Shown here in pieces: positions 3,416 to 64,000 of a DNA stretch of 64,000 nt. A model generated the notes under the pieces. It was given only the letters and a program-made list of their open reading frames with translations. It did no database searches and had not been told where the DNA came from. Both the position numbers and the translations under genes were made by a program. This stretch comes from Malacoraja senta (lineage: Eukaryota): contig CM075987.1 in NCBI GenBank assembly GCA_038087875.1, positions 28,398,001 through 28,462,000 on the forward strand, written 5' to 3'. Position 1 is the stretch's first letter; each line of letters begins with the position of its first letter.

Positions 3416-3424
3416 CCCGGTTAC

Positions 3425-3566: not shown

Positions 3567-3690
3567 CTTGTCCCAGGCGTGCGCGCTCCCACCCGGTCCT
3601 GCGTCAGCGTGCGCGCTCCCACCCGGCCCTGCGTCAGCGAGCGCGGCCCCGCCAGCCCCAGTCCAACGTGCGCGTCCCCGGTCATTTCAC
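3567..3690 (-). promoter_or_regulatory. PHPT1 CpG-island promoter with 30-bp tandem duplication
   Basis: GC/CpG-rich; repeated GCGTGCGCGCTCCCACCCGG(T/C)CCTGCGTCA containing NRF1-like GCGTGCGC and CRE/AP-1-like TGACGCA motifs, plus a GC box. Confidence 0.6.
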
Positions 3691-11020: not shown

Positions 11021-11929
11021 ATGGTTACACTTCCTTGTTTCTAAACCCTCACACAATGATCACCCTCTCCCCCACCCCTCATTCCCACCCCAACCCTCAC
11101 CCACCCTCACCTCACTCTCCCCCACCCTCACCCTCACCCCCACTCTCCCCCACCCTCATCCCCACTCTCCCCCACCCGCACTCTCCCCCACCCTCACACA
11201 ACAATGGCCTCACTACAGGGAGAAGGCAGCAGAATGGGGTTGAGAGGGAAAGATAGATCAGCCGTGATTGAATGGTGGAGTAGTCATGATGGGCTGAATG
11301 GCCTACTTCTACTAGTTATGCTGGCTGTGTTAGTTACATTTCTCCTTTACGCTTTATGCGGTTTAAATTGAATCCAATGTTTCTACCTAGCGGTCCCCCT
11401 CATGTCCACTCTGGCACATTTCTCAGGCCACTATAACCCGCCGGGTTGGAGACCAGCCCTTTCTGGAAAGATTTTAAAATCCCTGTACCTGACCTCTGTC
11501 CTTTGGCATTATGGCTTCAATACTTATTTTCTTTTCCCAATCTTTGATCTTCTGTTGATCAATTATTAGCCTATCTTTAAATTTGTACAATCACTTTACC
11601 AACTGCTGGATTACCCCCAAAACTCGTTCCCTTCTATTACAAAGCCCTGCTTATTTACAGTGTCTCCTGCTAGGTTCAGTGCTTCTCCTGACGTGCTAAC
11701 CCTGGCTGGTATTGTTTTCACTGACTGCGGTATATTAACTCTTCCCTGTCCAGTCTCAGCTAATGCTTTAGTTAGATTTAAGTATCCCATTCATTGGCTC
11801 TCATGGTGGGGAATGTGAAATCACTGTGTCTCCCCTAACAAGGCACAGGCTTCCTTCATCATTTTGCTGGGCAATCTAGTTAAAACTAAACAGTCAGGGG
11901 ACGGCGAGAATGCTGGTCTGAAGAAGGTG

Positions 11930-31000: not shown

Positions 31001-34000
31001 TCCCAGTCCTCTGGTAGGCTGCTTTTTCTGGCTAATTTGTACGCTTCATCTTTTGTTTTGATACTATCCCTGATTTCCCTTGTTATCCACGGATGCACTA
31101 CCTTCCCTGATTTATTCTTTTGCCAAACTGGGATGAACAATTGTTGTAGTTCATCCATGCAGTCTTTAAATGCCTTCCATTGCATATCCACCGTCAACCC
31201 TTTAAGAATCAATTGCCAGTCAATCTGGGCCAATTCACGTCTCATACCCTCAAAGTTACCTTTCTTTAAGTTCAGAACCCTTGTTTCTGAATTAACAATG
31301 TCACTCTCCATCCTAATGAAGAACTCAACCATATTATGGTCACTCTTGCCCAAGGGGCCACGCACAACAAGACTGCTAACTAACCCTTCCTCATTACTCA
31401 ATACCCAGTCTAGAATAGCCTGCTCTCTCGTTGGTTCCTCTACGTTGGTTTAGAAAACTATCCCGCATACATTCCAAGAAGTCCTCTTCCTCAGCACCAC
31501 TGCCAATTTGATTCACCCAATCTATATGTAGATTGAAGTCACCCATTATAACTGTTTTACCTTTGTTGCACGCATTTCTAATTTCCTGTTTGATGCCATC
31601 CCCAACTTCACTACTACTGCTAGATGGCCTGTACACAACACCCACCAGCGTTTTCTGCCCCTTAGTGTTTCGCAGCTCTACCCATACCGATTCCACATGC
31701 TCCAAGCTAATGTCCTTCCTTTCCACTGCGTTAATCTCCTCTCTAACTAGCAACGCTACCCCACCTCCTTTTCCTTTCTGTCTATTCCTCCTGAATATTG
31801 AATATCCCTGGATGTTCAGCTTCCAGCCTTGGTCACCCTGGAGCCATGTCTCCGTGATCCCAACTATATCATAATCATTAATAGCTATCTGCACATTCAA
31901 CTCATCCACCTTATTACGAATGCTCCTTGCATTGAGACACAAAGCCTTCAGGCTTGTCTTTACAACGCTCTTACCCCTTATACAATTATGTTGAAAAGTG
32001 GCCCTTTTTGATTTTTGCCCTGGATTTGTCTGCCTGCCACTTTTACTTTTCACCTTGCTACCTATTGCTACAACCCTCATTTTACACCCCTCTGTTTCTC
32101 TGCTCACACATTTAAGAAACCCACCACCTCTTATTCTCTGTTTATTATTTTTTTCTTCTTTCCCCCCTACATGTTGGGTCTGAGTGCTTCCCTTCTCTGC
32201 CTCCTGCCTCACACACTGTCTACTAGCTTTCTCTATTTGAGTCCCTCCCCCCAACCATTCTAGTTTAAAGTCACCACAGTAGCCTTTGCAAATCTCCCCG
32301 CCAGGATATTGGTCCCCCTCGGGTTCAAGTGCAACCCGTCCTTTTTGTACAGGTCGCACCTTCCACAAAAGAGGTCCCAATGATCCAGAAACTTGAATCA
32401 CTGCCCTCTGCACCAGTCCTTCAGCCACGCATTTATCCTCCACCTCGCTCCATTCCTACTCTCACTGTCGCGTGGCACAGGCAGTAATCCCGAGATTGTT
32501 ACCTTTGCGGTCCTTCTCCTTAACTCTCCTCCTAACTCCCTAAATTCTCCTTTCAGGACCTTTTCTCTTTTTCTACCTATGTCATTGGTACCTATATGTA
32601 CCACGACATCGGGCTCCTCTCCCTCCCATTTCAGGATATCTTGGACACGTTCAGACACATCCCAGACTCTGGCACCAGGGAGGCAAACTATTGTCAAGCT
32701 GGAAATGTTACAGAGAAGATTTATGAGGATGTTGCCAGGACTCAAGTGTCTGAGCTATAGGGAGAGGTTGAGTCAGCTGGGACTCTATTCCTTGGAGCGC
32801 AGGAGGATGAGGGGTGATTTTATAGAGGTGTATAAAATCATGAGAGTAATAGATCGGGTAGACGCACAGAGTTGTGGAATCGAGGACCAGAGGACATAGA
32901 TTCAAGGTGAAGGGGAAAAGATTTAATAGGAATCTGAGCGGTGACTTTTTCATACAAAGGTGTTGGGTGTATGGAATGAGCTGCCAGATGAGATAGTTGA
33001 AGCAGGGACTATACAAATGTTTAAGAAACAGACAGATACATGGATTGGACAGGTTTGGAGGGATATGGGCCAAACACAGGCAGGTGGGACGAGTGTAGCA
33101 GGGAAATGTTGGGCCGTAGGGCCTGTTTCCACTCATTCCACTGTATGACTGTATAATGAATCACCTGCGCATGTGGTAATGTTGATTTGCAGGTCTCAGT
33201 TCTGAAGCCAGTGCAAAAATTTCCAAGGCCTCGCCATACATGTTGACTTCAAACAGGTACTGACCCTAAAGAACAAAATCCCGTCACAGCTGGTTAGTGT
33301 CCATTGTGAACCTTGTACACAAAGTGGACAGAAAATCATGCATTTACTTCAGCGTTCCATGCCAACAATGACATTACAACAAAGACTTATAAAGTTGATT
33401 GCAGCAGATTGTTTATGGGCAAAGGGACATCCAGAAAGTGAGAAGTTTTGAAAAGTGTGGTAGTGAGAATTTAAGACATACATGCTCCCGTTAGAATGAA
33501 GGGCAAGGCAGGTAAGGAACCCTGGATGATGAGAGAAAATGAAGGTCTTGTCAGGAAATAGAAGGACTCAGAGGTCGGTGGATGCTGGTTCTCTGGATAC
33601 TTTCAAGAGAGAGCTAGATGGGGCTCTTAAAGATAGCGGAGTCAGGGGATATGGGGAGAAGGCAGGATGGGGTACTGATTGGGGATGATCAGCCATGATC
33701 ACATTGAATGGCGGTGCTGGCTCGAAGGGCCAAATGGCCTACTCCTATACCTATTGTCTATTGACATGTGTCAGGTATAGGCCATTGCAATTGTGTATCC
33801 CTGGAGGACTTTGGAGGGTTGTGGGGGCAGGTGATAGATCTGGAGATAAGATTATCAAAATCCAAATGTATTTTATGTATATTAAAGGACAAAGGTAACT
33901 AGAGAGAAAATAATACCCCTCAGAAACCTAAGTGGTCATCTATGTGTGGAACCACAGGAGATGGGCAAGGCCCTTGATGAATATTTCTCCTGGTTTTACC

Positions 34001-37000
34001 ACCGAGAAAGATATGAAGAGTTATCTGGGCGGCACGGTGGTGTAGCAGCAGGGTTACTGCCTTACAGCACTTGCAGCGCCGGAGACTCGGGTTCAATCTT
34101 GACCACGGTGCTGTCTGTACGGAGCTTGTACGTTCTTCCTGTGACCGCATGGGTTTTTTCCGAGATCTTCAGTTTCCTCCCACACTCCAAAGACGTACAG
34201 GTTTGTAGGTTCATTGGCTTTGGTTTGAATACTTGGTATAAGTGCAAATTGTTCCTAGTGTTTGTAGGCTTGTCTTAATGTGGGGATTGCTGGTCGGTGC
34301 AGATTCAATGCGCCGAAGGGCCTGTTTCTGCACTATATCTCTAAACTAAACTAAAACTGAACTAGGGAACTTTGGACATTTAATGGCGATGTCTTAAGGA
34401 CATTCCATATTGCAAATGAGGAGGTGCTTAACGTTGTAAGACATGAAGGAAGATAAATCTCCTGGGCCTGATCAGATGTATCCAAGGACACCGTGGGAAA
34501 CTGGATAAGAAATTGCAGGAGCCTAGCTGAGATATATGAATCATCATTAGACAAGGGGGGGGGGGGGGGTGCTGGAAGACTGGAGGGTGACTATTGTTTG
34601 TGCTTCTATTTAAGAAGGGCTAAAAAGGAAAACCTGGGAACTGTAAGTAAGCCTAATATCTGCGGTAGGAAAGTTACTGGTGATGATTCTCAGAGAGAAG
34701 ATATACATGCATTTAGATAGACAGAGGTTGATTATGCATAGTCAGTATGGTTTTGTATGTGGGAGATTGTATCTCACAAATTCTATTATGTTTTTTGAAT
34801 AAGAAACCAAGAAAGCTGATATAGGCAGGGTTGTAGACATAGTCTATTTGGATTTCAGCAAGTGTTTTGATATGTTTTCACATGTTAGGCTAGTCTGGAT
34901 TGCAAGGGATCCTGGGAGAGATAGCCGACTGGATATGAAATTCATATCAGTGAAGAAAGCGAATGGCATGTTGGCCTTCATAACAAGGAGAGTTGAGTAT
35001 AGGAGCAAAGAGGTACTTCTACAGTTGTACAGGGCCCTAGTGAGACCACACCTGGAGTATTGTGTGCAGGTTTGGTCTCCAAATTTGAGGAAGGACATTC
35101 TTGCTATTGAGGGAGTGCAGCATAGGTTTACAAGGTTAATTCCCGGGATGGCGGGACTGTCATATGCTGAGAGAATGGAGCAGCTGGGTTTGTACACTCT
35201 GGAGTTTAGAAGGATGAGAGGGAATCTCATTGAAACATGTAAGACCATTAAGGGTTTGGACACATTAGAGGCAGAAAACATGTTCCCGATGTTGGGGGAG
35301 TCCAGAACCAGGGGCCACAATTTAAGAATAACGGGGAAGCCATTTAAGGGGGTATGTTATAGACTTACATTAGGTCTTCCTCCAGCCTCGACTTCTCCAA
35401 GGAAAACAGCCCCAACCTCTCCAACCTGTTCATATAACCGAGGTTTCTGAGCCTAGGAATCATTCTTGCATATCTTGTCCTCAGACCCATCACATCCTTT
35501 TGATCATAAGGGGCAGGAGTTGAACACAATAATTCAGTTGAAGCTGGGGCAGGACTGAATCCTAACATGTAGCACTGATTAGATTATACAGTGTGTGCAA
35601 AAAGTCCATTCAAATGAACAGATCTATGCTCGCATGATAGAATTTTCTTTCATCCTATTCCATCTAATTTTTACTCTAATTTAAACAGCAATTAAACAGA
35701 GCATACACAAAAGAAAGACAAACATACTTGGATGTACAAGGTGTGGCCTATCTGGGTCACAACTGCATCATCTGAAGGGTCCAAGTTGCTGGCCAACCTG
35801 TGGTTGAGGACAGAAGACTGGAAATCGCCAAACATCAGATATGCCTCGGCCCTTCTCAGATAAAACTCTTTCTGCAATGTAAGGCAATTAAAACACGATT
35901 TTCTTCAACCAATCGGTATTTTGCCAGACTTACAATGAACATTATATGTATTTAGTTTAGTTTAGTTTACGGATACAGCATGGAAACAGGCCCTTCGGCC
36001 CACTGAGTCTGCGTTGACCAGTGATCCCTGCACACTAGCACTATCCTACACACACTAGGGACAATTTACAATTTTACAATTTTACAAACCTGCACGTCTT
36101 CGGTGTGTGGGAGGAAACCGAAGCAGCTGGCGAAAACCCACGCAGTCACATTAATAACGTATAAACTCCCTACAGACAGCATCCGTAATCAGGATGGAAC
36201 CCGGGTCTCTGGCACTAAGGCAGCAACTCCACTGCTGTGCCACTCCATGTATGTCAAATCAAAATAAGGAAAATACAGACAAATATATCTGTACTGCAGT
36301 TATTCATGCAAGTCCATAACTCCCTGAAAGTAGCAACACAAATAGAGTGGTAAAGAAGGCATATGATATGGCGAAGGCATATGATTTGGCGAAGGCATAT
36401 GATATGCTTGCTTTCATTGTTCGGGGCATTGAGTATAACAATTAGGAAGTCATGATGCAGCTTTACAAGACTTTGGTTAGGACACATTTGGAGTATTGCG
36501 TGCAGTTCTGGTCATCCCTTTACAGGAAGGATGTGAAGGCTTTGGAAAGGAGGTTTACCAGAATGATGACTGGGCTAGGGACTATTAGCTACAGGGAGAG
36601 GTTGGAAAGAGCTGGATTGTTTTCTCTGTAATTCTGGAGTTTGAGGGGAGATCTGATAGTCAAGTCAAGTCATATTTATTTATATAGCACATTTAAAAAA
36701 CAACTCTCGTTGGCTAAAGTGCTTTACATTTGTTATAAGAATAGCACAAACAAAACAAACTACATACATATATACATGTAGTCCTCACTCAAAGTACGTC
36801 AGGAAAGGCTTGGGAGTATAGATAAGTCTTTAGTCTTGACTTAAAAGAGTCGATGGAGGGGGCAGTTCTGATGGGAAGGGGGATGCTGTTCCACAGTCTA
36901 GGGGCTGCAACCGCAAAGGCGCGGTCGCCCCTGAGCTTATGCCTAGACCGTGGGATATTCAGCAACCCCAAGTCGGCCGATCTGAGGGGCCTGGAGGTGG

Positions 37001-39570
37001 AGTGGTGGGTGAGAAGACTTTTTATGTAGGTGGGGGCAAGCCCATTGAGGGCTTTGTAGACATGGAGGAGGATCTTGAAGTTTATACGGAACCGCACATG
37101 GAGCCAGTGGAGAGAAGCCAGGATCGGGGTGATGTGGTCCCTTTTTCGGGTGCCCGTCAGGAGTCTCGCTGTGCCGTTTTGGACCAGTTGCAGGCGGGAC
37201 AGGGAAGATTGGCTGATGCCAGTGTAAAGGGAGTTGCAGTAATCTAGGCGGGAGGAGATGAATGTGTGGATGATCTTTTCGAGGTCATCAAACTGGAGGA
37301 ATTGTTTTATTTTAGCTATCGTCCGAAGCTGAAAGAAGCTAGCTTTTACCACGGCATTGACTTGTTTGTCAAATTTCAGTGCTGAGTCAAATATCACGCC
37401 AAGGTTTTTGACGTGAGGTTTGAGTAGTGGGGTAAGGCTTCCAAGGCTGCCTGCTATCATTTTGATTGAGTCCGAGGGGCCGAGAAGGATGACCTCAGAC
37501 TTACTCTCGTTTAGTTGGAGGAAGTTCTGGGCCATCCAACACTTTATATCCTCGAGGCAGTGGGTAAGGTTAAACAGATTTGATTGGTTTTTGGGCTTCA
37601 GGGGGAGATAGAGTTGTGTATCGTCTGTGTAGCAATGAAAGGAAATGCCTGCCTTTCAATGACTTGGCCTAAGGGGAGCATATACAGGGAGAAGAGAATG
37701 GGGCCAAGGATGGAACCTTGTGGAACCCCACAACAGAGATTAGCTGGGGAGGAGAAAGAGTTGCCTATGTTAGTCGAGAAACTCCGATAGAAGCATATAA
37801 ATTTATGAGAGGCATTGATAAGGTAGACAGTCAGAACCTTTGTCCTAGAAAGGAAATAACACATACTAGAGGGCATAGCTTTAAGGTGAGAGGGGCAAAA
37901 TTTAAAGAATGTATACGAGGCAAATGTTTTACACAGAGTGGTGAGAGCCTGGAAGGGGTGGTGGAGGAGGCAGCTACAATAGTGGCATTTAGGAGGCTTT
38001 TAGATAGGCACATGGAGGCACAGTTGGAGTATTGTGTCCAGTTTTGGTCACCCTGTTATAGGAAAGATGTTGTTATGCTGGAAAGTGTGCAGAGAAGATT
38101 TACGAGGATGTTGCCAGGACCCGAGCTATAGGGAAAAGTTGGGCAAGCTAGGACTGTATTTCCTGGAGCATAGGAGGATGAGAGGCTCAGTTCAGAGGGA
38201 AATGGGCCAAACGTAAGCAGGTAGGTTAAGTGTAGATGGGGCACCTTTGCCGGCAGGGGCAAGCTGGGCCGAAGGGCCTCTTTGGGCTGCACGACTCTAT
38301 GACTGACTCCATGAACATCTTCTTTGTATTGCAATAGAGCCTGTGACCTTGACTGCCACTGCACCAAGGAGAAACTAATCTTACCTGCTGAGGATCCAGA
38401 GTAAGGGCTTTATTGAATGAAATTACTGCTTCCTCCAAAAGACCCCTGTTCAGGAGAATCTTGCCTCGTTCATAGCTGTAGAAAAGATGTGAACAGTAAA
38501 TCAATGTCTGAGATACAGGACCTTAACTATAGAGTGCGTTTTTGTGTAAACTATATCACAGTACGGTGGTATTTGTAAGAACAGTGTTGATAGATGACCT
38601 GTACATAAAGAACGTGCAGAAAGGGAAGCCATGATATTGAAGGGTTTCGGCCCAAAACGTTGCCTATTTCCTTCGCTCCATAGATGCTGCTGCACCCGCT
38701 GTGTTTCTCCAGCATTTTTGTGTACCCATGATATTTCTAATGGATTCTGAAGTCTCCTGGAACAGGTAAGTGATTCCCCCTGGTGGTCAAAGAAGAGCAT
38801 TGTCGAATACTCCCCCTAGGGCTTTTCCTCTTTAGTTTCGTTTAGTTTAGAGATACTGGGCGGAAACAGACCCTTCGGCCCACTGAGTCCGCACCAACCA
38901 GCGCCCACCGTACATTAACACTATCCTACACATTTAGGGACAATTTACATTGCATGCAACTTAGGGGAGGTTCTGACGGGGAGCAGCGGGTGGAATGCAG
39001 GGGCTTTGGCAATAGTCTGTATGCCTCGTGGTCATTAAACTTAAACTACTTGTTGTTATTTCCACAACTTCATACATCTGGTGCTGTAAAGCAGCAACTC
39101 TACCACTGTGCTTTTGTCTTTTATGAGCATCGGGTGCCATGTGACTCAGTTTCTCCAGTTCCATTCTTTTTGTTAGTCACAATAACATACTGTTGACGTA
39201 CCATGCTCTCTGAACTAGAGATCGCTCTTCTCCACTGAAACTCTAAAATGTGACCCATATAAATCAATGCCACAGCAATAATATTTTATATTTGCTATGC
39301 GATCATATCACTGATCACAGTGAAGAACAAACAAATTTATTTTACGTCTAAAGCCTTCTCTTACAGCATCCATGTCTGCTGTTATACTCACTGTTCTTTA
39401 GCCCGATCATTTATAATATCCGACATAACATAATTTCTCTTCTCTATGGTGTCCAGAGAAAAAATCTTACTGGATCCAAATAGATTTTGTCGTGATTCCT
39501 CTGTGGCCGCAGCCAGTTGTTCTTCAGATAATGCTGTGGGAAACACTCCTGCTTCCAACATGATTGTATC
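18928..39570 (-). CDS. TTC16: Tetratricopeptide repeat protein 16 (gene span of 10 resolved coding exons; C-terminal exons unresolved)
   Basis: Exons join in frame with GT-AG sites. Peptides such as [23 protein letters not shown]....[14 protein letters not shown] and LFPG.S..E match recalled human TTC16. Confidence 0.93.
19498..19770 (+). mobile_element. V-SINE (HE1-like)
   Basis: Same head, core and tail. Confidence 0.8.
19971..20350 (+). mobile_element. CR1 3' end
   Basis: RTRGHSL...[13 protein letters not shown] and a (TTCTATGT)n tail. Confidence 0.9.
20377..20542 (-). CDS. TTC16: TTC16 exon (TPR)
   Basis: [33 protein letters not shown]...[12 protein letters not shown]; 166 nt, phase 2 to 0. 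Confidence 0.92.
21009..21150 (-). CDS. TTC16: TTC16 exon (TPR)
   Basis: (D)[46 protein letters not shown](R); 142 nt, phase 1 to 2. Confidence 0.92.
22340..22685. mobile_element. Penelope-like GIY-YIG region fragments in inverted arrangement
   Basis: [15 protein letters not shown] and [28 protein letters not shown] on +; the preceding segment is its reverse complement. Confidence 0.7.
23403..23650 (-). CDS. TTC16: TTC16 exon (TPR)
   Basis: [18 protein letters not shown]...[46 protein letters not shown]; 248 nt, phase 2 to 1. Confidence 0.95.
24900..25250. repeat. (TA)/(CA)/(TG) compound microsatellite
   Basis: Direct reading. Confidence 0.9.
27048..27262 (-). CDS. TTC16: TTC16 exon (TPR)
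   Basis: [21 protein letters not shown]...[14 protein letters not shown](R); 215 nt, phase 0 to 2. Confidence 0.92.
28115..28244 (-). CDS. TTC16: TTC16 exon (TPR)
   Basis: [43 protein letters not shown]; 130 nt, phase 2 to 0. Confidence 0.92.
29061..32690 (-). mobile_element. Young CR1 LINE (part of esterase ORF1 plus frameshifted EN/RT ORF2) in a TTC16 intron
   Basis: ORF1 SGNH-esterase motifs ([20 protein letters not shown]), APE endonuclease (LNARSI, ITETWL, GDFN, SDH), RT motifs and 3' tail. Confidence 0.93.
32691..33150 (+). mobile_element. CR1 3' fragment
   Basis: [11 protein letters not shown]...[14 protein letters not shown]. Confidence 0.8.
33165..33265 (-). CDS. TTC16: TTC16 exon (TPR)
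   Basis: [33 protein letters not shown]; 101 nt, phase 0 to 2. Not in the ORF track; found by reading. Confidence 0.9.
34027..34360 (+). mobile_element. tRNA-derived V-SINE (HE1-like)
   Basis: tRNA-like A/B-box head, central GTTTCCTCCCACACTCCAAAGAC, CR1-derived GCCGAAGGGCCTGTTTC tail and (CTAAA)n. Confidence 0.85.
34950..35350 (+). mobile_element. CR1 fragment within an older CR1
   Basis: [10 protein letters not shown]...[13 protein letters not shown]. Confidence 0.8.
35728..35871 (-). CDS. TTC16: TTC16 exon (TPR)
   Basis: [48 protein letters not shown]; 144 nt, phase 0 to 0. Confidence 0.92.
35950..36245 (-). mobile_element. V-SINE (HE1-like)
   Basis: Reverse-complement copy with (TTTAG)n tail. 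Confidence 0.8.
36659..37783 (-). mobile_element. L2 LINE 3' fragment inserted in a CR1
   Basis: [45 protein letters not shown]; short-repeat tail. Confidence 0.9.
38385..38475 (-). CDS. TTC16: TTC16 exon (TPR)
   Basis: [30 protein letters not shown]; 91 nt, phase 2 to 0, GTAAG donor. Confidence 0.92.
39392..39570 (-). CDS. TTC16: TTC16 exon (N-terminal; in-frame ATG at 39561)
   Basis: [37 protein letters not shown]...DRAKE(H); CAG acceptor, GTGAGT donor; 179 nt, ends phase 2. Confidence 0.85.
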
Positions 39571-40854
39571 CTGTAGAAAGAGAACATTGAATCATCAAGA
39601 GCCTTTGCCAGCCGAGTGTAACAGATCATCGAGAGGGCAATCTTGAGTCATTGAAACAATTGACAAAGGTTTTTTTGTGTACAATGTTGCAGACCAGGGC
39701 AATTGTAGGGTTGGATTGTGCTAAGAAAGAGGAAGGGTTTTTTATTGATTGTTACTTTTCAATAAATAACCAGGCAATTATGACATTGGAAAAGTAAAGA
39801 CTTCCATTGGCATTAAAATATAAATGGATTCCCAAAGCTGAAATGCAGCATTGTGTGTAGCTGCCTATGGGAATGTAGTGCATGGGCCTTGTCTAGCAGG
39901 TAGTCACTTGTCATCACCTGCTGCTGCCTGGGTTTACCTGAACTAATAAACACACATCCTCCCCACACTCCACAGGGCCTGAAATAAAATGAATGGAAAA
40001 TGCTGGAAAGACTCAGCAGGTCAGGTCAGCATTTCTGAGAAAATAAATAGTCAACATTTCACATCAGAGTTAGAGAATGAAGAGGAGGGAGGGATTATCT
40101 CTGATAGGGTGAAACTAAATGAGGTAATGTGATAAGCTGAAAAATAAATTTAACCTAAAAAAATAATTTAGAGGTTTTTGTTTATCCCCTCTTACCTCAA
40201 CCAAATTTTGGCACTGATCTTCTTCCCTCTTTTCCTCCTCCTTGGGTTCCTCCATGATTCTATGGGTCTTCTAGATTCTTTGTAACTTGCCGTTCATTGC
40301 AAGGAAGGTGTGCATATCTTGTAATAAAACCTTGACCACTAAAAAAAAGGAATTCTAAATTTCCATTGTTGATGTGTCAATGTGTCCATGACGCTCCTCT
40401 AGTATCTTTGCTTGGGCCTTCAATCAAAGATTGTGCCTTCCTGTTCTGGATTATCCCACAAGTTGAAATTCAGTCAATTACCCAAGTTTATATATTTTTC
40501 AGCAACACCCTCTCATTAGAATTAACCCTAACGCTTCTGAGGGTGTGCATTCAACACAAACAAAGGTATTTTCAAAATGGGGGTGGGGGGGAGAGGCAGA
40601 ATGGAGCTGGCGGCCAACAGGCTGATGATACAGGAGCTTACCTGACTTTTTCCTGCCCCACCTCTCTCCCAGCTTTCTCCCCACCACCACAATTAACCCG
40701 AAGAAGGGTTCCCTGACCATCTGAGTTACTCCAGCACTTTGTGCTCCCCCACCACGATGCCCGCGCTGTTTTCAAGGGTGGGGTCTGAACGCTGACATTT
40801 CTCGGCGACAACGTAATGCACGGAACCGTCTTTAATAAATCACACCCTTTACCC

Positions 40855-45593: not shown

Positions 45594-47187
45594 CAGTGTC
45601 TTGCAAAAGTATTCATACCCCTTGAATTTTTCCACATTTTGTCACGTTACAACCACAAATGTAAATATATTTTATTGGGATTTTATGTGATAGACCAACA
45701 CAAAGTGGTGCATAATTGTGAAGTGGAAGGAAAATGATACATGGTTTTCAAATTAAAAAAAAAAAAAAAACTGAAAAGTGTGGTGTGCAAAAGTATTCAG
45801 CCCCCTTTACTCTGATACCCCTAAATAAAATCCAGTGCAACCAATTGCCTTCAGAAATCACCTAATTAGTAAATAGAGTCCACTTGTGTATAATCTAATC
45901 TCAGTATAAATACAGCTGTTCTGTGAAGGCCTCAGAGGTTTGTTAGAGAACATTAGTGAACAAACAGCACCATGAAGCCCAAGGAACACACCAGACAGGT
46001 CAGGGATAAAGTTGTGGAGAAGTTTAAAGCAGGGTTAGGTTATAAAAAAATATCCCAAGCTTTGAACATCTCACGGAGCACTGTTCAATCCATCATCCGA
46101 AAATGGAAAGAGTATGGCACAACTGCAAACCTACCAAGACATGGCCGTCCACCTAAACTGACAGGCCGGGCAAGGAGAGCATTGATCAGAGAAGCAGCCA
46201 AGAGGCCCATGGTAACTCTGGAGGAGCTGCAGAGATCCACAGCTCAGGTGGGAGAATCTGTCCACAGGACAACTATTAGTCGTGCACTCCACAAATCGGG
46301 CCTTTATGGAAGAGTGGCAAGAAGAAAGCCATTGTTGAAAAAAAGCCATAAGAAGTCCCGTTTGCAGTTTGCCACAAGCCATGTGGGGGACACAGCAAAC
46401 ATGTGGAGGAAGGTGCTCTGGTCAGATGAGACCAAAATTGAAGTTTTTGGCCTAAATGCAAAACGCTATGTGGCGGAAACCTAACACTGCACATCACCCT
46501 GAACACACCATCCCCACTGTGAAACATGGTGGTGGCAGCATCATGCTGTGGGGATGCTTTTCTTCAGAGTTGATGGGAAGATGGTTGGAGCCAAATACAG
46601 GGCAATCTTGGAAAAAAACCTGTTAGAGTCTGCAAAAGACTTGAGACTGGGGCGGAGGTTCACCTTCCAGCAGGACAACGACCCTAAACATACAGCCAGA
46701 GCTACAATGGAATGATTTAGATCAAAGCATATTCATGTGTTAGAATGGCCCAGTCAAAGTCCAGACCTAAATCCAATTGAGAATCTCTGGCAAGACTTGA
46801 AAATTGCTGTTCACAGACGCTCTCCATCCAATCTGACTGAGCTTGAGCTATTTTGCAAAAAAGAATGGGCAAAAATTTCAGTCTCTAGATGTGCAAAGCT
46901 GGTAGAGACATACCCCAAAAGACTTGCAGCTGTAATTGCAGCGAAACGTGGTTCTACAAAGTATTGACTCAGGGGGGCTGAATACTTTTGCACGCCACAC
47001 TTTTCAGTTTTTTATTTCAGTAAAAAAATTTGAAAACCATGTATCATTTTCCTTCCACTTCACAATTATGCACCGCTTTGTGTTGGTCTATCACATAAAA
47101 TCCCAATAAAATACATTTACGTTTGTGGTTGTAACGTGACAAAATGTGGAACAGTTCAAGGGGTATGAAAACTTTTACAAGCCACTG
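45594..47187 (+). mobile_element. Tc1/mariner DD34E transposon, Passport (PPTN)-like, full length but inactivated
   Basis: ~215-bp IR/DR-type TIRs starting CAGTG, TA target duplications (45592-93 and 47188-89). Transposase spans 45972-46967 with [14 protein letters not shown] and [11 protein letters not shown]. Frameshift near 46470, deletion near 46567, TGA near 46714. Confidence 0.93.
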
Positions 47188-53710: not shown

Positions 53711-55444
53711 ACAGATGCTTTGTTGAACACAAATTCGAGCAACCTGTTATGTGAATTCACTGCACATTGTCTACAAATTAGATATTGTGCTCTTTACTGC
53801 AAAATGGTTCTTTATTGCTCTGTGGCCCTTTACCTTTCCCCGTAATGCACCCATTGCCCAGATGCCAAACTTACAAAAGAAGACACAAAGTGCTGGAGTA
53901 ACTCAGCGGGTCAGGCAGCATTTCTGGAGAACATGGATAGGTGACGTTTCACAGATTGCTGGAGTAACTCAGCGGGTCAGGCAGCATCTGTGGAGAACAT
54001 GGATAGGTGAGATTTTGGGTTGTGAGCCTTCAGACTGATTTCTGGGTGTAATTCTGTTTACTTCATGAAGGCAGTGGCAAGAATGAATTTGTCTCCTGGA
54101 TAGATGTCCAATTGTGTTTTAATTGGGGCACTTTATGAAGAGTGGTTTTCAGTTGATGACTAAATTGTTATGATTAAGAAGACAGCAAGGAATTTAAAGT
54201 GGATCTACATTGTACTTGGTTGAAGAAAGTTAATGTGAACTAGTTGTTAACCACTTGTGTGAAATGGTTAATGTTAACTTCCCTAATCAAACCTTGTTTA
54301 TTATGAGCTCTTATGAAGGACTTTCAGGTGAAACGAATGTGTGTATGATGTGTGGAGTGGTCATTCATTGAACTTTGGACTGGACAGAATGTTGTAGAGA
54401 TTTGTAAAGATATTTGGATGCTCTTGCTCAAAAGATAAAATGCTGGAGTAACTCAGCGGGTCAGGCAGCATCTCTGGAGAACATGGATAGGTGATGTTTC
54501 ACAGAGTGCTGGAGTAACTCAGCGGGTCAGGCAGCATCTGTGAAGAATATGGATAGGTGATGTTTCACAGAGTGCTGGAGTAACTCAGTGGGTCAGGCAG
54601 CATCTGTGGGGAACATGATGGGTACAAAGTGCCTATATCCACCTACCAGTTTCAAGGGTTTGGCCCACCTCATCTCTTCAGCATTCTCCCCATCTACATC
54701 TTCAATCTGAACAAGGGTCCTGATCTAAATGATGCTTGTCAATTCACTTTGTGGTGACAAAGATGCCACCTGATCTGCTGAGTACCTCCCGCACTTTGTT
54801 TTTAGACCTAGTTATATTCCCTAGTTGGGTCTGTCGAAGGGAAAGTAGTTTAATATTTGTGGACACTGTTTGAAGTTTACAATCTACTAATCCTGCCCCT
54901 TCTGTTCACCCTACTGTAGTTATATAGTCAGTCTGAATCTATATCTGGTTTAGTCTGAGTGTGGGAACTGCCACAATCTATTTCCTGTTCCTCTCCCTGT
55001 GAAGGGGTGACATTCAGTTTCCACCACGTATCTCCATAGACTGGGTCCCATGCTGCTGGAAGTGTCTTCTGCGGTTAGATATTCTCTTCCCATTAAGCCA
55101 AATGTTGGCAGGACATTGGGCAAAATCCTTCCCCATCGCTGTTCCTCTGACTTGAGTCATTTAATTCAAAGTATTTCTTCCAGTTGTTGAGTCTGGGCTG
55201 TGTCAAGTTCTCTAAATATTTTGAACTGACTGCATGTCCTTGTTTGTGTACAGGGTTTGATGCCCATAGTAAGAGTTATAGCATTGGGCAGCTCAGTCAG
55301 GGAGTTCACTGTTTGTGCACCGGGTTTGATGCCCATAGTAAGAGTTACAGCATTGGGCAACTCGGTCAGGGAGTTCACTGTTTGTGTGAAGTTTTAACTT
55401 AATAGCTGGCATGTTGCTGTGCCAGTTTGATCATGAAAATAGTC

Positions 55445-55720
55445 AGGGAAAGAGGGGGTTCCCATCACCAGGGTGGGGGTTCATGGAAAGAGGGGAAAGA
55501 CCCCCACCCTGGTGATGGGAACCCCCTCTTTCCCTGAACCCCCACCCTGGTGATGGGAACCCCCTCTTTCCCTGACCCCCACCCTGGTGATGGGAACCCC
55601 CTCTTTCCCTGAACCCCCACCCTGGTGATGGGAACCCCCTCTTTCCCTGAACCCCACCCTGGTGATGGGAACCCCCTCTTTCCCTGAACCCCACCCTGGT
55701 GATGGGAACCCCTTTTTTCC
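55445..55720. repeat. 37-38 bp minisatellite with an inverted first unit
   Basis: CCCCACCCTGGTGATGGGAACCCCCTCTTTCCCTGAA repeated ~6 times; 55445-55480 is the reverse complement. Confidence 0.9.
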
Positions 55721-55931
55721 CATGTGTACAGATTGGGATTTCCTGCTCCAACGTGTTGGATCATCAGATAGACGGCGTTATTCAGACGGATCTGATCAGT
55801 GTTGCTCCTCCTGTTTTGCTGAGATGAGCCTCTTGGATTCCAGTGAAGACTGACGGTATCTGGGAGTCTGGAGATGGTACAGCTGAGGGTGATGTCACTG
55901 CCCATTACTGGCCTTGGTGAGTCGGCCTCAA
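55720..55931 (-). pseudogene. Ig C2-like exon E (paralog of exon A), 3'-truncated by a minisatellite
   Basis: VEADSPRPVMGSDITLSCTISRLPDTVSLHW...NPNLYTWE, then runs into a 37-38 bp tandem repeat. No donor and no second Cys. Confidence 0.8.
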
Positions 55932-56685
55932 CTGTGGAAACAGACACATGTGGTTCAGTTCACCAGCAGCTTTCTGAACTACTGTGGGCAGAATTGTCTT
56001 TTTCCTGCAGACAGACAGTCGGCCGAATGTTGAGTTGCCGTGCTCAGTGATGTCATCAACATTTCCTGGTAGTGACCACCTGTCCCCCTCGCCCCCTCGT
56101 CTCCCACATCAACACTTCCAGGTGGGGATGTTTTTAGTATAGTAGAAACACAGAACTGCAGATGCTGGTTAATATATAAAAGGACATAAAGTGCAGCAGT
56201 GATTCAGCGGATCAAGCAGCAACTCCAGAGAACATAGATCGCTGACGTTTCAGGTCGAGACCCTTCTTCAGACTGATTATTTTCCTTGGATGTCTTTTAC
56301 TGTGGGGTGATCATAGTGGGGTGATTCATGAGAGGCATATCTATAGTAAATGCACATGGTCTTTTCCCAGGGTTGGGGAATCAAAAACTAGATAGTACAT
56401 GGTTAAGGTGAGAGGGCCAGATTTGATATACCCCTTAATATGAGGGGCAAGTTTTGACAAAGAGAGTGGTACATGAACATACTTTATGGAAAGATCGAGC
56501 AGAGGAAGTGATTGATGCAGGTACAACAACACTTAAAATACATTTAAACGGGTATATGGACAAAAGGTTTAAGGGATAAGGGCCTAATGAGGGCAAATGG
56601 GATGTTTAGATGGGTAGTTGGTCAGTATGGTTGAATTGGGCCAAAGGGCCTGTTTCAGTGCTGTGTGACATTATGACTCTATTAC

Positions 56686-57030
56686 CTTTGACCCCAAATA
56701 GTTCCCACTGTCTCAGGATTTTCCCAGCGGGCTGTGTCTGATTCCAGGTGAACAGTCCCGCAAGTTCGAATGTGGGCATCCTGATCCTCAGATTAAGGGT
56801 ACCCCAGTCCGCATGCATCCTCTGGGAGATGCCTGGTATTTGATTGTACTCATCACTCCATTGTACGGGCCACTGCTGATCTTCTCTGCGGAAAGTGGCC
56901 AATCGCTTTGTGGTTTGTTGCCCTGAGTGTGGCCTCCATTCCAAGTCAATGGGGCCATTTTCAGGACTGTCTGGTCCTTTCAATACAAAGTTGCCTTCCT
57001 GATGGAAAAAGTAAATAGAATTTCCACATC
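56686..57030 (-). pseudogene. Ig V-like exon D lacking canonical cysteines
   Basis: SIYFFHQEGNFVLKGP...IDLEWRP...LNLRIRMPTFELAGLFTW...WELFGVK; 345 nt, phase 1 to 1, open frame. Confidence 0.75.
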
Positions 57031-57743
57031 CTGTAGGAAAAGAGAAGAATCTTTACTAAGTTGTACGTTATAATTCATCATGCAGGAACTGCATGGAAAC
57101 AGGCCCTCTGCAGCAATCTGTCCACGCTGACCAGTGGGTAACCATCCATGCAGACACAAGAAAATGCAGATTCTGGAATGTTGATCAAACGCAAAGTGCT
57201 GGAGAAACTCAATGGGTCAAGCAGCATCTGTGGAGGGAATGGATTGATGACATTTTGTATCGGGACCCTTTTTCAGACTGATGTAATAGGAGAGAAAAAG
57301 CTGGGGAAGGGAAGTAGGCATGAGACAAAGCACGGTAAGTGATAGGTGGATACAGCTGGGGAATGGTGATTAGTAGATGGATGGAGATAATGACAAAAGC
57401 AAGGAGTGAAATGGAAACCGAAGGTTGTCAGATCTGCAAAAGAGGGAGGGATATGGGTGGAAATGGGGCAAGAACATAAAAGGGAAATTGTGCAATTGGA
57501 AGGGGTGGGAGATGAGTGGAAAGAGGAAGGGAATGGGGTAGCTGTGTGGTGGGATGAATGCGTGCATAATGAAGGGGGGGGGAGAAGTGGGGTTCGGGAA
57601 GTGTTATTTGAAATTTGAGAATCCATTGATCATAACATAGTTAGACCACTCACAAACCAGAAGAACATATCCTGCTTTCAAATGTCAGGACATCAAAACT
57701 CAATCATGACTCTAAGTATGAAGAACCAACCCTTATCACTTAC

Positions 57744-58004
57744 CACGGGGCTCCAGATAGTACGGGACAAAAAGCCGGGGCAGGTCTTGATGAAACAAAC
57801 CACATCTCTAGTTCCCTCTGCCTCTCTCAGCTTTCTGAATAACCAGACTCTGTGATTTCTCTTTCCCGGTCAGTGTCTTTTCTCCAACACTTTTGCCATC
57901 GCCATTGATCCAAACCAGTCTCATTGACCCAATGACGTGAGACACAGAGCAGATCAGGGTAACGTTGTCTCCCTCAGTCACTGCATCAGACGGTTCAGCT
58001 GTGA
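57744..58004 (-). pseudogene. Ig C2-like exon C with mutated acceptor and nonsense codon
   Basis: VTAEPSDAVTEGDNVTLICSVSHV...LVWIN...RGRGN*RCGLF. TAG at 57808-57810 sits where W of the WxC motif is expected, and the acceptor reads TTCCACGG rather than TTCCACAG. Confidence 0.8.
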
Positions 58005-58082
58005 CCGTGGAAACAAGCAGGTTGTTTACATTTTAAACAATAAGTTCATCAGTAAACTCAGTGGCAACATTCTGTCTCCTAC

Positions 58083-58742
58083 CTTTCACTGTGATTAGAT
58101 CAATGATGGGAAATATATTTGATACCAGAAAACATGTGTAAACTCCGGCATCTTGAAACACAACGGGGACAATCCTCACACTGAAATCCTTGCCATCGAA
58201 GGGTTTCCCTGAGGTCACCAGTCGATTCCTGAAGTCGGTCCCATTGGCATTGATGTTGGGCTGAGAACGTTTTGCAGATGCTATTTCTTTGACTTTGACT
58301 TTGACTTTGATTCCTTTATTGTCATTCAGACCTTTCTGTCTGAACGAAATTTCGTTGCCTGCAGTCATACATATAATAAATAACAAAACACACAATAAAC
58401 ACAAATTAACATCCACCACAGTGAGTTCACCAGGCACCTCCTCACTGTGATGGAGGCAAAAGTCTTAAAGTCTCTGTCTCTTCCCTCCTTGTTCTCCCTC
58501 TGCGCTGAGGCGATCCAGGCTTCTGATGTTGTGACCCCGCCGGGTGATGGTAAGTCAGTCCCGCGGCTGAATCCGTGCTCCGTCCGCGACGGGCCGGTTC
58601 AAACTCCGCTGTTGAAGGCGATGAGATGTCCAGGTCCACTCAGCACGGGAATAGCTACGACCATATCTCCCATAACAAACCAGGTGAAGTTCACTGTGAT
58701 CTGTGCTGGAGCGGTAAAGTGTGTATCTCTTCCTATATAAAT
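58083..58742 (-). pseudogene. Ig V-like exon B split by a ~318-bp LINE-tail insertion
   Basis: LYRKRYTLYRSSTDHSELHLVCYG...AEWTWTSHRLQQ // KEIASAKRSQP...DFSVRIVPVVFQDAGVYTC...ITVK. The insert at ~58291-58608 introduces an in-frame stop. Confidence 0.8.
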
Positions 58743-59790
58743 CTGTATCAGAGAGACAGAGGATAACTCCTTTCAGTATTACAGTTACCGTGCCATACAG
58801 AGATTCTCAACCGTATTCTTATAAACATTCGTGGTGTTTTGTTCAGCTGATCAAGTTTCAAATGTAACATCTTTCATGAATGCCGCACTAAACTCATCAG
58901 ATCTTTATAAAATACAATGTCCTGTACGGCAGTAAATTGCAGTGAAGTTTGGATATTCCACTCTACATTTCAACATTAGGTTCGCCCCACACCCGGACTG
59001 TCCGGGAATCTCCCGGGATGGAATGAAACCTCCCGGAGACTCCCGAGAGCGGTCTGGGAGGTGAATGTCTCTGTCAGTCTGTCTGCAGGAGGTGGTGCAG
59101 GTTCAGGCTGCGGACAGAAGCAGCCCAGAGGATGCCTGCGCGGGGACTGACCCGGACAGGTTGGCACTTCAAGTGGGTCGGGTCTTCCCATCCCTTCATT
59201 CCCATTATTCCCACCATCCCTCTCCCATTCACACCCATTGATTCCCTGTCCTTCCCTGTTCCCGGGTCCTGCTCCCAGCTGAATGCTGATCCGAAGCCCG
59301 AGTCTGCAGCAGCTGGAATCACTTCAAGCAACACCAGACTCGGGGAGAAGGGTCAGTGAGGGGCGAGGGGACGGATTGTTGTTCAGTGCTGATGTGCGGG
59401 CCGGGACCCCCAGTGTGAGTGTGAGCAGCAAGTGCTGGTGGTTGTCATGGTGACTACACTTTCTATCTGACACTGACGTGAGTCCTGTATCAGTATCTCA
59501 GTCTCAGATACTGGAGCATTGATGGCAAGATAAACTGACAAAATACTTTACTGAACAATGGTTACAGAAAGACATCCCCCTCCTGTGCTGTGTGTCTGTC
59601 ACACAGAGACAAGCAGGCAGCTGCTCCACAGAGATGCTTTCTGTAAACTTCTCCCTGACCATTGCAGCATTTTATACTGGAGAGCAGTTGGTCACTGCCA
59701 CAGTTCTTCACAGGGCGCACACGTAATATTGCAAGAAGCACCGTGATACAAGTGTCTACTTGATATCCAATGGGAGGTGTTTACACTCAC

Positions 59791-60060
59791 TGTTGTCTAC
59801 AGTAAAATCTCCGTTACTTGTGTGAACAATGTTTCCGTTTTCCTGCACATCACACACATACAGCTTCCCATCCTCCACTGTAACGTGTGGAACCATCAGA
59901 TAGAACGTGTTATCCAGGCGGATCTGATCAGTGTTGCTCCTGTTCTGCTGGGATGAGTCCATGGGTCTCCAGTGAAGACTGACGGCATCTGAGAGTCTGG
60001 AGATGGCGCAGTTGAGTGTGACGTCACTGCCCAGCAGAGGGATCTGTGGACTTGCCTCAA
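59791..60060 (-). pseudogene. Ig C2-like exon A
   Basis: VEASPQIPLLGSDVTLNCAISRLSDAVSLHW...DGKLYVCDVQENG; 270 nt, phase 1 to 1, canonical splice sites. Confidence 0.85.
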
Positions 60061-60212
60061 CTGTGAAAAACAGATCAATGAGATTCAGAGTGAGTAGTGG
60101 TTTGTACAAGTCAAGTCCCAGATAGGACAAGGACATTCTTGCTTGCTGCAGCACAACAGAATATTGTAGGCATAAATACAGAACAGATCAGTGTGTCCAT
60201 GTACCATAGAAT

Positions 60213-63200
60213 GTGACCTGTACAAAAAGGATGGGTTGCACTTGAACCCGAGGGGGACCAATATCCTGGCAGGGAGATTTGCAAAGGCTACTGCGGAGAC
60301 TTTAAACTAGAAAGGTTGGAGGGAGGGACTCAAATAGAGAAAGTTAGTAGACAGTGTGTGAGGCAGGAGGCAGAGAAGGGAAGCACTCAGACCCAACATG
60401 TAGAGGGGAAAGAAGAACAAAATAATAAACAGAGAATAAGAGGTGGTGGGTTTCTTAAATGTGTGAGCAGAGAGACAGAGGGGTGTAAAATGAGGGTAGA
60501 CGCAATAGGTAGCAAGGTGAAAAGTAAAAGTGGCAGGCAGACAAATCCAGGGCAAAAATCAAAAAGGGCCACTTTTCGACATAATTGTAAGAGCGTTGTA
60601 AAAACAAGCCTGAAGGCTTTGTGTCTCAATGCAAGGAGCATTCGTAATAAGGTAGATGCGTTGAATGTGCAGATAGCTATTAATGATTATGATATAGTTG
60701 GGATCATGGAGACATGGCTCCAGGGTGACCAAGGCTGGGAGCTGAACATCCAGGGATATTCAATATTCAGGAGGGATAGACAGAAAGGAAAAGGAGGTGG
60801 GGTAGCGTTGCTGGTTGGAGAGGAGATTAACGCAATAGAAATGAAGGACATTAGCTTGGAGGATGTGGAATCGATATGGGTAAATCTACGAAACACTAAG
60901 GGGCAGAAAACACTAGTGGGTGTTGTGTACAGGCCACCTAACAGTAGTAGTGGAGTTGGGGATGGCATCAAACAGGAAATTAGAAATGCGTGCAACAAAG
61001 GTAAAACAGTTATAATGGGTGACTTCAATCTACATATAGATTGGGTGAATCAAATTGGCAGGGGGGCTGAGGAAGAGGATTTCTTGGAATGTATGTGGGA
61101 TAGTTTTCTAAACCAACATGTAATATAATAATAGATTTATTTTTATATAGCGCTTTTCAGGACTCAAAGTCGCTTTACAATTGAGTCAGGAATAAACAAA
61201 ACAAAATAGAGCAGTAAGACAGAGGGGAGGGGAACATGGGACTAAGGGTATGCAGAGGTGAAGAGATGGGTCTTGAGGCGGGACTGGAAGATGGTGAGGG
61301 ACTCAGAATTTCGGACCGGTTGTGGGAGGGAATTCCAGAGCCTGGGAGCTGCCCTGGAGAAGGCTCTGCCTCCAAAAGTGCAGAGGTTTGATTTCGGAGT
61401 GGAGAGGAGACCAGCTGATGTGGATCTGAGGGACCGTGAGGGTTGGTAGGGGGAGAGGAGGTCAATGAGATAAGGGAGGGCCAGGTTGTTGAGGGCTTTG
61501 TAGGTGAGGACCAGGATTTTGTAGGTGATCCGGTGGGAAATGGGAAGCCAGTGAAGTTCTTTGAGAACTGGGGTGATGTGGTGCCAGGATTTGGTGTGGG
61601 TGATGAGTCGAGCGGCTGTATTTTGGACCAGTTGGAGTCGTTTGATGCTGTTGGAATTGATTCCGAAAAGAAGAGAGTTTCAGTAGTCCAGTCGGGAGGA
61701 GATGAAGGCATGGATGAGTCTTTCAGCAGCGGGGGGTGTGAGAGACGATCTGATTTTTGCAATGTTGCTGAGGTGAAAAAATGATGTTTTGACAACATGG
61801 CAGATGTGAGGCTCAAGGGAGAGGGTTGAGTCAAGGATCACGCCAAGGTTGCGTGCCTGAGGAGATGGGGAGACAGTGGTGCCGTCGATAGTGAGAGTGG
61901 GGTTGTTAATTTTAGTGAGTGTTGATTTGGAGCCAATGAGGAGAAATTCTGTTTTGCTACTGTTTAATTTAAGGAAGTTGAGTTGTATCCAAGATTTGAT
62001 GGCTGATAGGCAGGAGTTGATATGGGAGAGAGGGGGGTGGTGGGGGGACTTGGTGCTGAGATAGATCTGGGTGTCATCAGCATAGCAGTGGAAGTCCAGG
62101 TTGAAGTGACGGAGTATATGACCAAGGGGGAGGATGTAGATGATGAAGAGGAGGGGACCAAGAACGGAGCCTTGGGGAACGCCTTGAGTGACAGTGGCTG
62201 TGGCAGAGGTGTGGTTATGGAGAGAGATGAAGTGGGATCGGTTGGAAAGGTAAGAACGGAACCAGCTGAGTGCAGAACCTTCAATGCCAAGGTCCCTAAG
62301 TCTGGTGAGCAGGATGTTGTGGTTGACGGTATCGAAGGCTGCACTCAGGTCGAGGAGGATGAGGATATTGAGGGAGCCAGAGTCAGCAGAGGTAAGGAGG
62401 TCATTGAGGACTTTGAGGAGAGCAGTTTCTGTGCTATGGAGGGGGCGAAAGCCAGATTGGAGGGGTTCGAATAGGTTATACGCGAGGAGGTGGGAATGAA
62501 GTTGTGACACGACGATGCGCTCCAGGGTTTTTGAAAGAAAGGGGAGGTTTGAGATGGGGCGGTAGTTAATGAGAGAGGAGGGATCAAGACCAGGTTTCTT
62601 TAAGATTGGTGTGACAGCAGCAGTTTTGAAAGCAGAGGGGACAATTCCTTGGAACAATGAGGAGTTGAAAAGATTAGTGAGGTAGGGGCAGAGAGCAGGG
62701 AGGCAGGACTTCAGCAGGGGAGTGGGGAGAGGGTCAAGGGAGCAGGTAGTGGGTTTGGAAGAGCTGATGAGTTTGGAAATTTCTGTAGGGGTGACTGGGT
62801 CAAACTGGGAGAGGAAGCAGTGAGGGGGAGGGGTATGGAGATCAGCGGAGATGTTGAAAGGAGATGTTGAAAGATGTTGAAAGAGGAACCAATGAGAGAA
62901 CAGGCTATTCTAGACTGGGTATTGAGTAATGAGGAAAGGTTGGTTAGCAGTCTTGTTGTGCGTGGCCCTTGGGCAAGAGTGACCATAATATGGTTGAGTT
63001 CTTCATTAGGATGGAGAGTGACATTGTTAATTCAGAAACAAGGGTTCTGAACTTAAAGAAAGGTAACTTTGAAGGTATGAGACGTGAATTGGCCAAGATT
63101 GACTGGCAATTGATTCTTAAAGGGTTGACGGTGGATATGCAATGGAAGGCATTTAAAGACTGCATGGATGAACTACAACAATTGTTCATCCCAGTTTGGC

Positions 63201-64000
63201 AAAAAAAAAATCAGGGAAGGTAGTGCATCTGTGGATAACAAAGGAAATCAGGGATAGTATCAAAACGAAAGATGAAGCGTACAAATTAGCCAGAAAAAAG
63301 CAGCCTACCAGAGGACTGGGAGAAATTCAGAGTCCAGCAGAGGAGGACAAAGGGCTTAATTAGGAAAGGGAAAATAGATTATGAAAGAAAACTGGCAGGG
63401 AACATAAAAACTGACTGCAAACGTTTTTATAGATATATGAAGAGAAAGAGATTAGTTAAAACAAATGTAGGTCCCTTGCAGTCAGAAACAGGTGAATTGA
63501 TCATGGGAAACAAAGACATGGCAGACCAATTGAATAACTACTTTGGTTCTGTCTTCACTAAGGAAGACATAAATAATCTGCCGGAAATAGCAGGGGACCG
63601 TGGGTCAAATGAGATGGAGGAACTGAGTGAAATCCAGGTTAGCCGGGAAATGGTGTTAGGTAAATTGAATGGATTAAAGGCCGATAAATCCCCAGGGCCA
63701 GATAGGCTGCATCCCAGAGTACTTAAGGAAGTAGCCCCAGAAATAGTGGATGCATTAGTGATAATTTTTCAAAACTACTTAGATTCTGGAGTAGTTCCTG
63801 AGGATTGGAGGGTAGCTAATGTAACCCCACTTTTTAAAAAGGGAGGGAGAGAGAAAACGGGGAATTATAGACCAGTTAGTCTTACATCGGTAGTGGGGAA
63901 ACTGCTAGAGTCAGTTATTAAAGATGGGATAGCAGCACATTTGGAAAATGGTGAAATCTTTGGACAAAGTCAGCATGGATTTATGAAAGGTAAATCATGT
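60213..64000 (+). mobile_element. Young CR1 (same subfamily as 29061-32690) interrupted by L2; runs off the window
   Basis: Near-identical ORF1 end, endonuclease and tether sequence. Split between ...AACCAACATGTA and GAGGAACCA... Confidence 0.92.
61123..62882 (-). mobile_element. L2 LINE 3' portion with nearly intact RT
   Basis: 325-aa ORF with [34 protein letters not shown] and YADDTQIY. Confidence 0.92.

Follow-up and report, generated by a model that had tools for sequence, protein, structure and literature searches.

The 64,000-nt stretch of the Malacoraja senta genome analyzed here (assembly GCA_038087875.1, contig CM075987.1, positions 28,398,001 to 28,462,000; "the window") contains five immunoglobulin (Ig) exons, designated A to E, which run on the minus strand from 60060 to 55722 and are all phase 1. 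The domain types along the locus are C2 (A), V (B), C2 (C), cysteine-less V (D), and C2 (E). The exons, which appear to be the remains of a multi-domain receptor gene, are as follows, with D1 to D8 denoting domain positions in its intact relatives:

59791..60060, minus strand: exon A, 270 nt; D2, C2-type with a YxC F strand; Pfam ig match at 4e-6
58083..58742, minus strand: exon B, 660 nt including an insert; D3, V-type with B and F cysteines; split by a repeat
57744..58004, minus strand: exon C, 261 nt; D4, C2-type with a WxC F strand
56686..57030, minus strand: exon D, 345 nt; D5, cysteine-less V-type, first domain of the second module; frame open
55722..55931, minus strand: exon E; D6, C2-type with YTW where YxC is expected; 3' part cut (end approximate)

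Exon A has an unbroken frame with both splice sites canonical, and the splice sites of exon D are canonical as well. The halves of exon B on either side of the repeat cover the D3 profile from end to end, and the exon contains the motif DFSVRIVPVVFQDAGVYTC that a sequence-only reading of this stretch had singled out. Pfam Ig matches were obtained for exons A, B, C, and E, and the Pfam scan gave no Ig match for exon D. Exons E and A are paralogs (79% nucleotide identity over 191 columns, E-value 9e-43; 62% amino acid identity), as that reading had proposed along with the phase-1 C2-V-C2-V-C2 pattern. That the exons are no chance pattern is shown by intact skate proteins, which align collinearly to them in tblastn searches (E-values of 1e-12 to 5e-62 for protein P0002). 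The best amino acid identity to skate domains at the same position is 88% for A, 78% for B, 89% for C, 86% for D, and 93% for E. In domain trees built on about 90 columns, in which many forks stay open, exon D groups with batoid D5 (100/100) and exon E falls inside the elasmobranch D6 clade (SH-aLRT 100). Judged by these alignments, exons A to E correspond to D2, D3, D4, D5, and D6 of a type I receptor that skates, rays, and sharks possess and that is predicted to contain eight domains.

In two runs from related organisms, contigs connect C with D and D with E at exactly these borders; both runs were guessed to be RNA, and one of them was flagged as probably DNA. The contigs of the RNA-guess type stop at 59791, the donor of exon A. 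These joins mean that close relatives splice at the same borders and do not imply expression of the window copy. In run X1, up to 28 different contigs lie at one place within 58642-59955, over non-repeat exon and intron sequence, which is consistent with many near copies of the segment in that organism and is not a copy number.

The sequence-only reading had treated the locus as a receptor gene, whereas the following features make it a pseudogene fragment broken in at least four places, as read from the assembly:

58290..58607, minus strand: high-copy repeat in exon B, about 318 nt (borders approximate)
58005..58006, minus strand: splice acceptor of exon C, GG in place of AG
57808..57810, minus strand: stop in exon C, TGG to TAG at the Trp codon of WxC
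55500-55721, no strand assigned: tandem array of a 37-bp unit, 5.9 copies, where the gene breaks off
55442-55495, no strand assigned: inverted copy of the 37-bp unit beyond the array (whole feature 55442..55721)
60212..64000, plus strand: remnants of long interspersed nuclear elements (LINE) with endonuclease, occupying the expected space of intron 1 and D1
about 61180-62910, opposite strand: reverse transcriptase (RT) element nested in the LINE remnants

When translated through, the insert in exon B shows two stops in frame, and it ends in (TCAAAG)n. This repeat has very high contig depth in all four runs, and diverged copies of it occur at 24467-24615 and 17522-17593. Exon C does show the (W)xC pattern previously noted, with the TAG stop in the position of the Trp codon. 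Exon E is without its last approximately 19 codons and its donor site; the F-strand cysteine that is absent from its YTW is absent from 18 of 20 intact eight-domain proteins as well, and hence its loss is not a lesion. The 37-bp array and its inverted copy form a fold-back arrangement exactly at the gene break, and no further copy lies in the window. A profile search of the window in six frames gave no match to leader, D1, membrane, or tail exons (best independent E-values 0.94-1.4). D7 and D8 were not matched in the window, in which the 51 relatives introduced below matched nowhere else, and no membrane-like exon was seen by eye at 39-55.8 kb in a scan of splice candidates. Since LINE remnants occupy 60212-64000, D1 may be located beyond the window. 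The introns are retained, and the copy therefore probably arose at the DNA level.

There is very little probability that the locus is still functional, with exons B and C skipped or with a secreted product, or that its lesions are assembly errors. Exons A and D do have open frames and canonical splice sites, exon skipping would keep the frame because all exons are phase 1, and D3-skipped forms are the commonest exception to the domain order of the relatives (29 of 45 out-of-order pairs). However, the lesions are of four independent kinds, the donor of exon E is missing, and the window holds no leader, membrane, or tail exon.

The genes that neighbor the Ig exons in the window are the following:

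3390-3569, minus strand: first coding exon of PHPT1 (14 kDa phosphohistidine phosphatase), confirmed
about 23200-39600, minus strand: multi-exon tetratricopeptide repeat (TPR) gene with TPR matches; 5' end not fixed; consistent with TTC16

The TPR gene is on the same strand as the Ig exons and at least 16 kb downstream of them. The neighbors had been named PHPT1 and TTC16 from the sequence alone; PHPT1 stands at about 3.5 kb, whereas the gene at about 23-39 kb bears the name TTC16 only by its TPR matches. In each species, the intact receptor genes mostly form one cluster with close or consecutive locus numbers, carried by a large contig (54-244 Mb); additional, mostly partial models are present in two skates on contigs of 14-27 Mb and on small scaffolds. 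The trees place exons A and C with or beside these smaller-contig skate copies, with moderate support. Because the main clusters lie elsewhere and exons A and C group with the dispersed copies of skates, the PHPT1/TPR neighborhood most likely received this copy secondarily. An older connection of the site may nevertheless exist, as passages of PMC10751288 describe the MHC (major histocompatibility complex) paralogons of chromosomes 9 and 12 as ancestrally linked. Elsewhere in the window, the N-terminus of a Tc1/mariner-type transposase was found at 45960-46481 on the plus strand (HTH_Tnp_Tc3_2, 1.5e-26), within an element of about 45.8-47 kb, and a long degenerate tandem repeat at 9749-11059, with several minus-strand frames open, is probably a minisatellite.

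Homology searches recovered intact elasmobranch proteins, the paralogs that the sequence-only reading had named as its first check, and extended the family beyond cartilaginous fish. The 78 candidates of the search with exon A yielded 51 proteins, which come from 17 species, every one a skate, ray, or shark. Exon D gave 30 representatives, and those looked up include proteins of catshark, electric ray, chimaera, and American eel; three of its matches (P0068, P0073, and P0075) were repetitive and unrelated and were removed before all counts. Searches with an eel protein (58 matches) and with a mixed profile (48 matches) reached eels, tarpon, mormyrids, cypriniforms, characins, salmonids, and mudminnow. 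The idea of a chondrichthyan-specific family thus falls, since eels, mormyrids, carps, characins, and salmonids have members too. These searches, which were word-limited or single-domain and do not show absence, found no member in tetrapods, lobe-finned fish, neoteleosts, or ray-finned fish outside the teleosts.

Nearly all members are named uncharacterized or hypothetical or bear loose automatic names, and the analysis took 'obscurin-like' and 'CD276 antigen homolog', which three members are called in the databases, to be automatic labels. One of the proteins named 'obscurin-like' is P0025 of the nurse shark (AGQ17915.1), whose accession adjoins nurse shark CD8 (AGQ17914), hinting that it was perhaps deposited within a set of immune genes. 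The family had been expected to be poorly described, and no description of it was found in a literature search that had subscription journals outside its range. The passages of PMC3964593, PMC6523485, and PMC11372145 add nothing, and the supplements of PMC3964593 and PMC10768021 do not mention the family under the terms tried.

Four profiles made from family sequences served to count domains in 191 proteins, a figure that includes isoforms. The cycle D1, D2, D3, D4, D1 was followed by 529 of 574 adjacent domain pairs, and the predicted proteins are built of a period-4 module [cysteine-less V, C2, V, C2-WxC], present one to approximately four times. Both the period of four and the tandem multiplication of a CD4-like cassette, which had been anticipated from exons A and E, are therefore upheld in the intact relatives. 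Protein size ranges from one or two domains up to 15 in the catshark, and otophysan members are mostly without D1. The 15-domain catshark model (P0052) has a single membrane segment, and a 20-domain eel model (P0070) with internal membrane segments probably represents fused neighboring genes. D1 is cysteine-free in 104 of 144 cases, WxC occurs in 209 of 215 D4 domains and in none of 204 D2 domains, and two cysteines only are present in most D4 (185/210) and D3 (141/183) domains. The D6 clade spans sharks and batoids (100/100), and because it unites both, the eight-domain form is probably older than their split. The domain doubling of eels is, in the predicted proteins, separate from that of elasmobranchs. 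Mean identity among 20 eight-domain proteins is 50% for D1, 55% for D3, 71% for D5, and 78% for D6, and the greater variability of D1 and D3 suggests that these domains bind ligand.

The cytoplasmic tails were compared among 77 proteins assigned to the chondrichthyans according to the search that found them, approximately ten of which were not looked up by name. A motif of the immunoreceptor tyrosine-based inhibitory motif (ITIM) type, I(H/Q)YxxI/V/L, occurs in 29 of the 77, and 25 of these 29 carry a second, C-terminal V/I-I/V-Yxx motif. In ten others, a short tail of 10-52 residues comes after a membrane segment with YLxxKL, and the two features are mutually exclusive, with none of the 77 proteins having both. 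Eels also possess short forms with Arg or Lys in the membrane segment, and a motif of the (I/L)HYA(S/T)V type is kept in 13 of 114 teleost proteins. YxN is common in the tails of the family, and a pair resembling the ITAM (immunoreceptor tyrosine-based activation motif) was found in none of the 191 proteins. In paired receptors, ITIM forms recruit SHP-1/SHP-2 and forms with a charged membrane segment couple to an activating adaptor. With related ectodomains, ITIM or charged-membrane tails, and clustered genes, the predicted proteins show the features by which paired receptors are recognized, and their tails point to a family of paired ITIM and activating receptors, not to a T-cell co-receptor.

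The likeness to CD4 and LAG-3 from which the sequence-only reading started holds in profile searches and in predicted folds, but not in motif distribution, as WxC is confined to one C2 domain per module and the tail motifs differ. LAG-3 is the best solved-structure match of the family profiles (4e-16 and 6.5e-16), in an alignment that spans the V-C2 junction and WxC; CD22 comes next (6e-13 and 8e-12), and CD4 D1 matches the family D3 at approximately 1e-6. Structure prediction gave a four-domain model with a mean pLDDT (predicted local distance difference test) of 76 and a D1-D2 model with a pLDDT of 82. The D1-D2 model superposes on rat CD4 D3-D4 with a Z-score of 15.4 and a root-mean-square deviation (rmsd) of 2.8 over 171 of 177 residues, at rank 1 of 48,161 chains, and its fit to CD4 D1-D2 is lower (Z 12.6). 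The D3-D4 model superposes on CD4 D1-D2 (Z 15.5, rmsd 2.6-2.9, 173-175 residues aligned), CD4 taking the top 23 rows. A rigid V-C2 rod of the CD4 type is thus present in the predicted models (more than 170 residues aligned), with CD4 rods top-ranked for both V-C2 pairs. Because D1-D2 fits CD4 D3-D4 and D3-D4 fits CD4 D1-D2, the modeled module looks like the two rods of CD4 in swapped order.

It is quite unlikely that this resemblance reflects generic V-C2 geometry and a convergent WxC in an unrelated paired group of the Ig superfamily (IgSF), such as the Siglec/CD22, SIRP, or CEACAM type. Such a group would fit the low sequence identity to CD4 (13-19%), the equally good matches of D2 to CD22, titin, and NCAM, the single-sequence search that places CD276 (2e-6) marginally above LAG-3 (5e-6), and the Foldseek search with the whole four-domain model, in which pIgR comes first and CD4 and LAG-3 next. 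It would not fit the profiles, in which LAG-3, aligned over the V-C2 junction and WxC, leads by three to four orders of magnitude, nor the predicted rods, for both of which CD4 is the top structural match with full two-domain overlap, nor WxC itself, which passages of PMC10768021 call very unusual. Despite its similar build, the family is not CD4 or LAG-3 and should not be filed with them, because WxC is not in both C2 domains and its tail motifs differ from theirs. In the passages of PMC10768021, CD4 and LAG-3 have WxC in both C2 domains, tails with Cx(C/H) or (F/Y)xxL(D/E), and a conserved locus, at which sharks possess their own CD4 and LAG-3, and cysteine loss is described as variable among CD4 orthologs. 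Among the 135 family proteins with a membrane segment, the LCK-binding motif Cx(C/H) was found only in four, all short eel isoforms and none chondrichthyan, and (F/Y)xxL(D/E) in two, without conservation.

The explanation favored here, with a probability of roughly 0.7, sees in the locus a D2-D6 fragment, broken but still with its introns, of a gene for eight Ig domains whose jawed-fish family has no name; the fragment was likely copied from the main cluster in the skate lineage, and the intact members of the family are predicted to be immune receptors of the paired type with the shape of CD4. Each module would form two rigid V-C2 rods, the first like CD4 D3-D4 and the second like CD4 D1-D2, and the variable outer domains D1 and D3 would bind ligand. 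By analogy with paired-receptor biology, ITIM forms would recruit SHP-1/SHP-2 and dampen the cell, and short forms with a membrane lysine would pair with an ITAM adaptor of the DAP12 or FcR-gamma type and activate it. Exon-cassette duplication with birth-and-death evolution would yield the variants of 2 to 15 domains and dead copies such as the window locus. That locus is useful because it points to the family and illustrates how copies disperse in skates under birth-and-death evolution.

Several points weigh against this explanation. The identity to CD4 is only 13-19% and the structure predictor has seen CD4 structures; WxC is missing from D2; and neither the CD4-specific nor the G6B model of Pfam was among the matches listed for the 7, 14, and 30 proteins scanned. 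The lesions are those of the assembly sequence, D1 is possibly situated past the edge of the window, and the roles proposed for the tails derive from motifs in gene models made automatically. The family is provisionally set apart from CD4, LAG-3, G6f-like, and G6B by architecture, motifs, and profile matches, and from DICP by published description. Finally, the nearest language-model neighbors of a goldfish member are G6B-carrying and g6f-like clusters (0.95-0.96), and because of them the family may sit inside an already named group.

Going further, we consider it possible, with less than even confidence, that this is an undescribed paired-receptor family predating the split of sharks and bony fish, in which the two V-C2 rods of CD4 are swapped and multiplied as cassettes, forming a further branch beside CD4, LAG-3, and G6f-like that kept innate-style signalling by ITIM versus adaptor. 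If so, D3-D6 of the eight-domain forms would read in the order of CD4 itself, CD4 and LAG-3 may have arisen from material of the kind that this branch retains, and on shark leukocytes its receptors may recognize MHC-like ligands or ligands of pathogens. The origin of CD4 and LAG-3 from a V-C2 ancestor is still debated, according to passages of PMC10768021. Few germline-encoded inhibitory or activating leukocyte receptors have been described in cartilaginous fish, and a paired family with CD4-type rods that extends from shark to carp would be a concrete object for both questions, with members in laboratory-tractable cyprinids and salmonids.

Among known systems, CD4 and LAG-3 share with the family the V-C2-V-C2 unit, WxC in the fourth domain, and one exon per domain at the locus. 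They differ in that the family places a cysteine-less V domain first, so that the rods appear swapped relative to mammalian CD4, repeats its unit up to approximately four times, lacks WxC in D2, forms a multigene cluster, and carries dual-ITIM tails or a membrane lysine instead of Cx(C/H) or (F/Y)xxL(D/E). The family is likely an ancient, so far undescribed paired-receptor variant of the CD4/LAG-3/G6f-like kind.

G6f-like resembles CD4 and LAG-3, and G6B bears ITIM and immunoreceptor tyrosine-based switch motifs (ITSM). It is unlikely that a group already named, either DICP or the G6B/G6f-like proteins, has the family as its branch in cartilaginous fish and basal teleosts, which would leave only the species range as new. 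G6f-like has four Ig domains, YxN, and ITAM in the passages of PMC3528668, the first two of which the family shares. A first language-model search returned generic V-set clusters only, and the G6B-like and g6f-like clusters were the neighbors noted above, Pfam PF15096 (G6B) being found in 63% of the members of the neighboring cluster. In contrast to G6f-like, G6F, and G6B, the family is multigene and probably paired, multiplies its modules, and lacks ITAM and a listed Pfam G6B match. DICPs, as far as passages of bioRxiv 2021.06.11.448072 describe them, are likewise clustered fish receptors with inhibitory, charged-transmembrane, and secreted forms and tandemly doubled units (D1-D2-D1-D2 variants). 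However, the repeat unit of DICPs has two domains with extra conserved cysteines, whereas that of the family has four distinct domain types, mostly with two cysteines per domain, a contrast that is weak for the cysteines because the four-domain DICPs of bowfin also lack most of the extra ones. The same passages place DICPs in linkage with the MHC in bowfin and do not report them from cartilaginous fish, and no homolog-search match was named DICP or g6f-like.

Under the favored explanation, a distinct family of CD4-shaped paired receptors, the members would likely work in the manner of the paired IgSF receptors in general, such as LILR/PIR, CD300, Siglec, NITR, and the skate MDIR. These likely share with the family related ectodomains, ITIM versus charged-transmembrane forms, a variable outer domain, and birth-and-death evolution. 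No homolog match carried the name of such a receptor, and the family differs from them in an ectodomain that appears to be built from CD4-type rods.

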